Position numbers and translations under genes: made by a program. From a virus: DNA of 58,279 bases. Positions 57,428 through 57,787 of this stretch are shown here, in pieces. Below the pieces are notes generated by a model. The model was not told where the DNA came from. It searched no databases and was given only the letters and a program-made list of their open reading frames with translations. The stretch spans positions 1 to 58,279 of the IMG/VR virus record IMGVR_UViG_3300045988_062123; one strand, given 5' to 3'. How positions within the stretch are numbered: position 1 is the stretch's first letter; every line of letters starts with the position of its first letter.

Positions 57428-57494
57428 GGCTTGTCTCATCAGTGGCAAGGTTGCCAGCCTACACCAGACCGCCCGCGCTGGGCGGTTTCGACTT
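57428..57494 (-). ncRNA. Hammerhead ribozyme, type II topology (HHR-B)
   Basis: The minus strand reads GUC-GAAA-[CCGCCC agcgc GGGCGG]-UC|UGGUGUAGGCUGGCAACCUUGCCA-CUGAUGA-GAC. All core nucleotides are present, including the A15.1-U16.1 pair and C17 at 57467. Confidence 0.8.
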
Positions 57495-57707
57495 TTACGC
57501 CTCAATAAAAATAGTCGGCTCGGCTTCGATTGTTTCGCCGGCTCCGCAATCAAGAATGCGGCGGCGCAATGTTTTTTTATACTTTTCGTTGTCAGGCTGC
57601 AAAACAAAAGTAACAGTTTTTGCCGTTCTTTTTACGATTTCAACAACGATAAAAGCGCCGTTGTTCAGTTCTTTTGTATATCTTTTTCCAATTTCAAATT
57701 TATTCAT
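57495..57707 (-). CDS. Small protein (70 aa) of a family seen on Firmicutes mobile elements
   Basis: RBS AAAGG before the ATG at 57707. MNKFEIGKRY...VKRTAKTVTF pattern. Flanked by both hammerheads. Confidence 0.65.
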   Translation of the reverse strand: MNKFEIGKRYTKELNNGAFIVVEIVKRTAKTVTFVLQPDNEKYKKTLRRRILDCGAGETIEAEPTIFIEA

Positions 57708-57721
57708 ATTATTGACCTTTC

Positions 57722-57787
57722 TAGCCTATCTCATCAGCGCCGGGAGGCTATCCCGCGGCGGACGCTCCGAAGAGCGTTTCGAAATTA
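57722..57787 (-). ncRNA. Hammerhead ribozyme, type II topology (HHR-A)
   Basis: The minus strand reads UUUC-GAAA-[CGCUC uucg GAGCG]-UC|CGCCGCGGGAUAGCCUCCCGGCG-CUGAUGA-GAUA-GGCUA. C17 is at 57761. The stem I loop UAGCC is complementary to the 3' GGCUA. Confidence 0.8.

Follow-up and report, generated by a model that had tools for sequence, protein, structure and literature searches.

Type II hammerhead ribozymes at gene borders in the early operon of a gut phage family

What becomes of a phage transcript that carries a hammerhead ribozyme on either side of one of its genes? The locus that raises this question lies in the IMG/VR virus record IMGVR_UViG_3300045988_062123, which was analyzed over its whole stretch of 58,279 nucleotides (the window). 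Two type II hammerheads on the minus strand, HHR-B and HHR-A, bracket an open reading frame (ORF) for a protein of 70 amino acids, and the same genome encodes the RNA ligase RtcB. The original prediction joined these parts and proposed that the ribozymes release an RNA that RtcB may close into a circle. Comparison of the window with its relatives leads to a different reading. Hammerhead self-cleavage probably punctuates the early operon, giving monocistronic mRNAs with hairpin-capped ends and uncoupling the stability and translation of the genes in it.

Results

Two type II hammerheads bracket a single gene

An Rfam scan of the entire window returned two Hammerhead_II (RF02276) matches and no other ribozyme. 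HHR-B (57784..57720, minus strand) scored 45.3 bits against a gathering score of 37, with an E-value of 4e-6 over the whole window. HHR-A (57493..57424, minus strand) scored 35.1 bits, just under the gathering score, with an E-value of 0.002 over the window and 3e-4 over its last 8 kb. The case for HHR-A is strengthened by the family covariance models, which have its own sequence in training, and by the covariation described below. Model R2 assigned 67.3 bits to HHR-B and 67.2 bits to HHR-A (E-value 1e-19), scores that are not independent because both sequences belong to the R2 training set. Model R1 assigned 71.7 bits to HHR-A, again not independently, as HHR-A is in the R1 training alignment.

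The core is the same in both copies and consists of CUGAUGA...GAAA, the A15.1-U16.1 and G10.1-C11.1 pairs, and GUC at the cleavage site. The fold is the type II permutation, in which loops close off stems I and III and stem II is open, and N1.1 and N2.1 are paired in the alignments to Rfam and to our own model. Both copies also have the pseudoknot between loop I and the 3' tail that is a hallmark of type II. In HHR-B the 5' strand of stem II (UUC, 57783..57781) is followed by GAA (57780..57778), stem III (57777..57762), the predicted cleavage site between 57761 and 57760, stem I (57760..57738) and CUGAUGA (57737..57731); its pseudoknot pairs loop I UAGCCU (57750..57745) with the tail AGGCUA (57727..57722) over 6 bp. 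The corresponding parts of HHR-A are the stem II 5' strand GUC (57492..57490), stem III (57486..57468), the predicted cleavage site between 57467 and 57466, stem I (57466..57443) and CUGAUGA (57442..57436). Its tail AAGCCAAAC (57432..57424) pairs with the loop GGCU/UGGC, and GGCU/AGCC makes 4 bp. All three stems and the pseudoknot differ between HHR-A and HHR-B, which have only the core in common.

Ruler reading and a string search placed C17 at 57761 in HHR-B and at 57467 in HHR-A, so the piece between the predicted cleavage sites runs from 57760 to 57467 and is 294 nt long. The original prediction of two complete hammerheads in the same minus orientation around the ORF at 57495..57707, with these cleavage sites and this unit, is thus borne out by the Rfam matches, the canonical cores and the string search. 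Judged by sequence, both elements are bona fide type II hammerheads.

The hammerhead fold is under selection across the phage family

A covariance model was built from five HHR-A-like sequences and used to search 80 RtcB-anchored viral loci, 15 loci anchored on a neighboring gene for a 231-amino acid protein, and the p70 loci. The RtcB-anchored set yielded 45 further significant hammerheads in 30 loci, and more came from the other sets, from locus L037, from one GenBank record and from metagenome contigs. Nearly all of them map to this phage family's leftward early operon, and they amount to 38 distinct sequences. A strict descriptor of type II hammerheads, combining a regular expression with pairing rules, missed most family members, and covariance models R1 and R2 took its place. 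When mixed subtypes were aligned with MAFFT (A1), they came out misaligned, and this alignment was dropped.

The closest relatives vary little. Ten contigs encode an identical 70-amino acid protein and all ten keep both ribozymes; the HHR-A sequence is identical across them, and the sole change is in a stem III loop. Sources of contigs with this cassette include SRR30556425, SRR23801711, ERZ857675 and SRR31227731. The wider family is informative about structure. Among the 38 distinct sequences, pairing is kept in 98.8% of cells, and compensatory double changes occur in 10 of the 15 modeled pairs. The covariation score is 0.552, compared to 0.203 in shuffles (0 of 500 reach 0.552) and at most 0.144 with slid partners; the alignment was fitted to the model, so the counts lean toward structure, yet the slid controls, which keep the relatedness of the sequences, score far lower. 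The pseudoknot between loop I and the tail is maintained through at least five different sequence pairs, with a mean of 4.47 bp compared to 3.05 ± 0.12 for shuffled tails. The presence of G-U pairs makes the structure specific to the transcribed strand. These data indicate that the RNAs are under selection for the hammerhead fold.

The same data bear on the notion that the two elements are chance matches or decayed, inactive copies, which we regard as scarcely credible. HHR-A does fall 1.9 bits under the Rfam gathering threshold. Against this, the two hits share their orientation, occupy adjacent intergenic spacers, have perfect cores and pseudoknots, and are conserved with covariation across 38 distinct relatives. 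On the aligned sequences, the covariation appears to have effectively refuted chance or decay.

The family core is invariant except at position 7 and in a subgroup with U4 changed to C, which is taken up below. The core reads CUGACGA in 4 of the 38 distinct hammerheads. Between A9 and G10.1, an additional U is found in most members of HHR-B type that do not belong to the subtype seen in the window. One member (L129:2412-2474, minus strand) has lost most of the core (CUG---A), and about 1.4 kb without clear ORFs on that strand separate it from the next ribozyme. It looks, from these features, like a ribozyme that decayed after an insertion. The GenBank record is that of Dulem virus 39 (L230, PP511791.1), from lemur gut, which has the nearest RtcB among GenBank phages (75% identity). 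It contains three unannotated type II hammerheads at 49651-49719 (minus strand), 50137-50201 (minus strand) and 51863-51928 (plus strand); one of the three belongs to the rightward operon and shares its strand with RtcB.

Ribozymes abut stop codons and precede start codons

The position of the ribozymes relative to genes is nearly constant. In 48 of 50 distinct contexts, the stop codon of the upstream ORF ends between -1 and +4 nt of the first ribozyme base, and in 29 contexts the last base of the stop codon is the first base of the ribozyme. A downstream start codon was detected in 44 contexts. It lies 8-25 nt past the model end in 42 of these, the outliers being at 0 and 41 nt. The ribozymes in the window begin 1-2 nt past a stop codon and end about 10-20 nt ahead of the next start codon. 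The parts of the leftward early operon, together with the ligase gene, are listed below; RBS denotes a ribosome-binding site.

57934..57962, minus strand: promoter-like site that matches the consensus at 11 of 12 positions, TTGACA-17-TACAAT with a TG extension, predicted start near 57927
57785..57901, minus strand: first cistron, an ORF of 38 amino acids whose TAA (57787..57785) ends 1 nt ahead of HHR-B; the gene is also called in relatives
57718..57784, minus strand: HHR-B, type II hammerhead found by Rfam and by covariance model
57495..57707, minus strand: second cistron, the 70-amino acid cassette ORF, with RBS GAAAGG at 57721..57716 and stop codon at 57497..57495
57423..57493, minus strand: HHR-A, type II hammerhead found by Rfam and by covariance models
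56960..57400, minus strand: third cistron, an ORF of 146 amino acids (MASIKLQG...), with RBS GGAGGG at 57414..57409; the gene is called in relatives
56937..56953, minus strand: terminator-like hairpin followed by a T-run, downstream of the 146-amino acid ORF
4346..5554, plus strand: RtcB RNA ligase (Pfam PF01139), in the divergent rightward operon

The promoter-like site is near-consensus and diverges from a gene for a helix-turn-helix protein (Cro/CI-like) that starts at 58049. The gene after HHR-A starts at ATG 57400, which corrects earlier work on this stretch outside the prediction itself.

This layout suggests how transcript punctuation would proceed. A leftward transcript of about 1 kb would extend from the promoter (57962..57934) to the terminator-like hairpin (56953..56937). 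Co-transcriptional self-cleavage after C57761 and C57467 would divide this tricistronic RNA into three mRNAs, about 167, 294 and 535 nt long. Each product downstream of a cut would have its 5'-OH at the foot of the stem I hairpin, which is G+C-rich; the pseudoknot tail would come next and lead directly to the RBS. Each product upstream of a cut would have the stem III hairpin, also G+C-rich, at its end, with a 2',3'-cyclic phosphate. The hairpin-capped ends would likely resist exonucleases, and neighboring accessory genes would likely become uncoupled in stability and translation. As a minimum, the original prediction had the early transcript cut into monocistronic pieces after stop codons and before the next RBS. 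The placement of the ribozymes supports this part, with cleavage as the predicted step.

Hammerheads, tRNAs and hairpins occupy the same slot

Distant homologues of the 70-amino acid cassette gene (36-63% identity) are typically the first gene behind a strong promoter in other viral contigs, and the slot directly 3' of their stop codon holds a variety of RNA elements. It is occupied by a type II hammerhead in L036 and L037, the latter a weak match to our own model and the former a near-identical sequence recognized by eye. An Rfam scan at the gathering threshold of 20 loci with distant homologues returned no hammerheads. In nine loci (L026, L028, L029, L031-L035 and L038; approximately 3213..3285), the slot contains a tRNA that begins 9 nt past the stop codon. 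Four loci (L018, L019, L021 and L023) have a tRNA-like element, not called by Rfam, that includes a T-arm and an acceptor-like stem, and five (L022, L024, L027, L030 and L039) have a plain G+C hairpin. All four kinds of element form or protect RNA ends, which argues that the job of the ribozyme is to process and cap the ends of mRNAs. We take this substitution within one slot, read from sequence comparison, as the best comparative argument for end processing and capping.

Several points weigh against transcript punctuation. Core U4 is changed to C in 13 of the 38 distinct hammerheads, which read CCGAUGA (for example L127:3135-3200, L051:771-837 and L093:323-391); their stems and pseudoknot are perfect, and the group is probably functional. 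An 82-amino acid protein (P0005), encoded on one 8.7-kb contig, is an in-frame fusion of residues 1-28 of the 38-amino acid ORF to the 70-amino acid ORF from residue 17. This fusion implies a phage variant without HHR-B, and a single ribozyme would thus be dispensable. Cleavage in vivo and its effect on the fate of the mRNA are steps that we infer from the motifs and where they lie. The chemistry of the ends also allows the opposite outcome. In Firmicutes a 5'-OH end can be a substrate of RNase J1, an established fate of the product of the glmS ribozyme in B. subtilis, so cleavage could destabilize rather than stabilize the downstream RNA.

Decay of this kind is one form of another explanation, in which the ribozymes are negative or conditional regulators. 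They would act either through 5'-OH-dependent decay or through a terminating ribosome that unfolds the ribozyme, so that cleavage reports on upstream translation. The glmS ribozyme product is a precedent for RNase J1-dependent decay. Here, however, the 5'-OH nucleotide is base-paired at the foot of stem I, a stable helix, so that an exonuclease would find no single-stranded 5' tail. The ribosome version draws on the placement data, since the stop codon overlaps or abuts stem II in 48 of 50 contexts and a ribosome terminating there must extend over the ribozyme's 5' half. The tRNAs and plain hairpins that fill the same slot in other lineages do not sense translation, and no ligand-binding or switch element is evident in the ribozymes. 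We judge a regulatory role of this type quite unlikely.

Ribozymes coincide with the borders of exchanged cassettes

Many relatives have two or three hammerheads in series around unrelated small genes. The genes between hammerheads encode proteins of 43, 70, 76, 87, 128+82, 50+105 and 78+96 amino acids, and the cleavage-to-cleavage units measure 277, 294, 314-315, 331-332, 462-463, 521 and 554 nt, with one outlier of 1431 nt. A constraint on the size or reading frame of the excised units was considered and is ruled out by the spread of 277-554 nt and by the outlier.

The same ribozyme subtype adjoins unrelated genes in different relatives. In L131 and L136 a different gene stands between HHR-B and HHR-A, which are both retained at 96% identity; what L133 is missing is precisely the unit formed by the 70-amino acid ORF and HHR-A; and in L134 and L135 divergence begins right behind HHR-B. 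Three versions of the cassette protein (P0006, P0007 and P0009) have replaced C-termini, which places mosaic breakpoints inside the gene as well. Conserved ribozymes at cassette borders thus also mark where relatives exchanged gene cassettes. This coincidence may reflect a second role of the ribozymes or may be a by-product.

These observations could also mean that the ribozymes are mainly cassette-border elements, that is, recombination junctions of 65-70 nt or modules linked to ORFs, with RNA cleavage secondary or left over. The breakpoints at ribozyme edges in the five relatives just named and the pairing of one subtype with unrelated genes speak for it. Compensatory changes in stems and pseudoknot, strand-specific G-U pairs and a near-invariant core, however, show that selection acts on the folded RNA as well as on any DNA identity. 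Some breakpoints fall within the gene, and breakpoints at gene borders are common in phage mosaics with or without special elements. We therefore regard border function as the main role of the ribozymes as unlikely. A border role is compatible with transcript punctuation and need not replace it.

RtcB is inherited with tRNAs and not with the ribozymes

The window ends, 1..99 and 58181..58279, consist of the same sequence of about 99 nt, which makes the assembly circular with a length of roughly 58.2 kb. The helix-turn-helix gene on the plus strand that starts at 58049 crosses the junction and has its stop codon at 103..105. Circularity puts RtcB only about 4.9 kb from the ribozymes across the junction, in the divergently transcribed rightward operon. 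The protein matches Pfam PF01139 with an E-value of 2.6e-58, and its motifs MPDVHAG, DIGCG, GGGNHF, HSGSR and PHGAGR align to the RtcB structures PDB 1uc2 and 2epg, including the histidine nucleophile of HGAGR. The Pfam match and the full set of catalytic motifs confirm that the gene at 4346..5554 is a canonical rtcB, as originally predicted.

The proposal that goes with this gene is that the 294-nt RNA is sealed by the phage RtcB, by a host RtcB or by self-ligation of the hammerhead, giving a circular, exonuclease-resistant mRNA with a chimeric hammerhead. Several features suit it. By the established biochemistry of hammerheads and RtcB, a 5'-OH and a 2',3'-cyclic phosphate are the right ends; an RtcB with intact catalytic motifs is encoded nearby; and an RBS, a start codon and a stop codon all lie within the 294-nt unit. 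The chimeric stem II can form 3 bp, and the original reading of this helix as GUC paired with GAU, with one G-U, is correct as read from the sequence.

Folding of the 294-nt RNA argues the other way. Its minimum free energy is -76.6 kcal/mol compared to -72.6 ± 4.3 for shuffles (z = -0.93), and the ends are not paired with each other in the centroid structure. Each end is locked in its own hairpin, and only a helix of 3 bp, with a loop of about 210 nt to close, would bring them together. The rebuilt hammerhead would cut the circle again, and the length of the unit is unconstrained (277-554 nt). The junction of the predicted circle (GGCGGUC joined to CGCCGCGG; ...GCGGGCGGUC to CGCCGCGGGAUAGCC...) gave 0 hits in metagenome contigs, a weak null because the genomic site itself is in only 5 contigs there. 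Perreault et al. sought circular products of such arrays and detected none (PMC3088659).

Co-inheritance provides a further comparison, counted within ±10 kb of each locus. A hammerhead is present in only 30 of the 80 RtcB-anchored loci (50 without), and in 25 of the 47 that have the full 10 kb upstream (22 without). The odds ratio for RtcB and hammerhead within the phage family is 0.2, calculated from loci that are phylogenetically related and not independent, and it shows the two assorting independently or negatively. Four of the ten phages with the identical cassette have an ORF of 134 amino acids in place of RtcB and no RtcB in the 20 kb covered, and they keep both ribozymes. Nine further loci cover both the empty RtcB slot and the leftward operon, and all nine contain one or two hammerheads. 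A search around 80 diverse RtcB loci of bacterial genomes (50-79% identity, 1.26 Mb) found no type II hammerhead, and the eight nearest genomic RtcB loci contained no Rfam ribozyme of any class.

RtcB keeps company with tRNA genes instead. They are found in 74 of 87 loci with RtcB, as two to five tRNAs located 2-6 kb upstream on the same strand, compared to 5 of 18 loci without RtcB (odds ratio 14.8, p = 3e-6), and the nearest genomic RtcB loci have tRNA clusters as well. RtcB itself is encoded by 681 of 50,697 GenBank phages of very different kinds, where it is annotated as a tRNA-splicing or RNA ligase. The window has no tRNA genes and so belongs to the minority with RtcB and without tRNAs. 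RtcB tracks the tRNA cluster and not the ribozymes. Although these counts, too, come from phylogenetically related loci of ±10 kb, they point clearly to a tRNA-related role rather than to a partner of the ribozymes. The link between RtcB and the ribozymes on which the original prediction depended thus does not survive the test of co-inheritance. We consider it very improbable that hammerhead-bounded single-gene RNAs, the 294-nt unit included, are sealed in vivo into circular translatable mRNAs, whether by phage or host RtcB or by the reverse hammerhead reaction. If they were, they would be the first circular mRNAs to occur naturally in a DNA phage.

The tRNAs upstream of RtcB in L050-L129 include Gln-UUG, Ser-GCU, Asn, Ile and Tyr. 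A suppressor tRNA with anticodon UUA is predicted in eight loci, and some anticodons are odd (AUU, AAU).

The cassette protein and the phage

The 70-amino acid cassette protein belongs to a family of 66-73 residues (homologues P0010-P0127) with a conserved FE.GK.Y...EIVKRTAKT motif. Its AlphaFold model is a six-stranded all-beta fold with a predicted local distance difference test (pLDDT) score of 91. The sequence has no Pfam or PHROG hit, and the model has no PDB match at E ≤ 0.001. None of the 118 homologues carries a functional name or a Pfam domain, and one is labeled 'hypothetical protein'.

The window is a phage genome that encodes an SPP1-type portal, capsid protein E and a terminase, and relatives have an integrase and Xis. 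The phage is temperate and siphovirus-like and probably infects Lachnospiraceae, a host group suggested by the nearest genomic RtcB homologues, which are in metagenome-assembled genomes of Lachnospiraceae, Acetatifactor and Blautia. A blastn search of 50,697 phage records found no close GenBank relative of the operon.

Two other genes in the window were noted. The large terminase (5650..8442, plus strand, 930 amino acids) has a LAGLIDADG_3 domain inserted at about residues 376-433, and several otherwise near-identical relatives have a terminase of 577 amino acids without the insert. The comparison suggests that the insert is an intein or homing endonuclease that is present in some of these phages and absent from others. 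The leftward block ends with a gene (55482..55973, minus strand) that has a weak IrrE/Peptidase_M78-like match with an E-value of 0.0018, which does not pass the Pfam cut-off. If that match is real, this gene and the ORF6N anti-repressor at 54534..55283 might together make up a module of the anti-repressor type.

Discussion

The arrangement in the window has a direct precedent. The original prediction knew of no description of a ribozyme-bounded layout for a phage protein-coding cassette, but one had been published: natural type II hammerheads were discovered by Perreault et al. 2011 (PMC3088659), who reported multiple copies flanking individual prophage genes. Three of these arrays cleave in vitro and one in E. 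coli. The authors proposed single-gene mRNA processing and considered circular or spliced products, which were not detectable. The present hammerheads resemble the prophage arrays in ribozyme class, in the pseudoknot between loop I and the 3' tail, and in having several copies in one orientation around variable genes. They differ in belonging to another phage lineage, from the gut, probably of Lachnospiraceae and without a close GenBank relative, and in their cargo genes. Three points go beyond the 2011 description: the ribozymes abut stop codons almost without exception, they coincide with mosaic breakpoints, and tRNAs or hairpins can take their place in the slot.

A second precedent comes from D. 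vulgaris, where a type II pair (loci 2 and 3) lies about 313 nt apart in a phage-like region near a helix-turn-helix gene (Olzog et al. 2021, PMC8782182). Cleavage in vivo was demonstrated there by capture of the 2',3'-cyclic phosphate and 5'-OH ends. The present pair likewise consists of two type II hammerheads on one strand with similar spacing and a helix-turn-helix gene close by. The host phylum is different, the sequences are unrelated, and the present phage is known from sequence alone.

Retrozymes and viroid-like circular RNAs are a more distant comparison. Their RNAs can be circularized by tRNA ligase or RtcB (Cervera and de la Pena, PMC7229834, PMC7761336). The likeness is that two hammerheads in the same orientation bound an RNA of a few hundred nucleotides with 5'-OH and 2',3'-cyclic phosphate ends, which are predicted ends here. 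The ribozymes of those elements are of type III or type I and sit in direct repeats that are identical, or in multimers, and the RNA of the elements is non-coding and self-complementary and replicates or is retrotransposed. Here the ribozymes are type II and non-identical, and the RNA between them is ordinary A+T-rich coding RNA without excess structure in the operon of a double-stranded DNA phage. The analogy to viroids and retrozymes in the original prediction fails on both structure (z = -0.93) and repeats, as the two ribozymes are not repeats of each other.

Tornado-type engineered circular RNAs use ribozymes that flank a cargo, endogenous RtcB, and a designed stem that holds the ends together. 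Self-cleaving ribozymes on both sides of the cargo and an RtcB are shared with the present locus, whereas no end-to-end pairing is found in the 294-nt RNA. Phage modules of RtcB and tRNAs, with a putative function in RNA repair, are another point of comparison. The RtcB of the window has all the catalytic motifs, and in most relatives with RtcB it lies downstream of a tRNA cluster on the same strand; unlike these modules, the window has lost the tRNA cluster or never acquired it.

Strategies for RNA circularization have been reviewed (e.g. PMC4344496). A literature search on phage hammerheads together with RtcB and circular RNA returned only engineering papers and work on eukaryotic retrozymes, and it turned up no publication connecting hammerheads of phages with RtcB or with natural circular mRNAs. 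As the evidence stands, the arrangement adds another case of the layout described in 2011, and circularization by RtcB is not supported.

A 2019 review states the same processing hypothesis and lists the function of the hundreds of bacterial and phage hammerheads as unresolved (PMC6765202). The phage family described here is common in human-gut metagenomes and offers a natural series for testing that hypothesis. It provides dozens of covarying ribozymes at exact junctions between stop codons and RBSs, cassettes swapped at ribozyme edges, tRNAs and hairpins as substitutes, and variants with and without RtcB that have the identical cassette. The value of the finding lies in this rich natural series, from which one may learn what phage hammerheads do.

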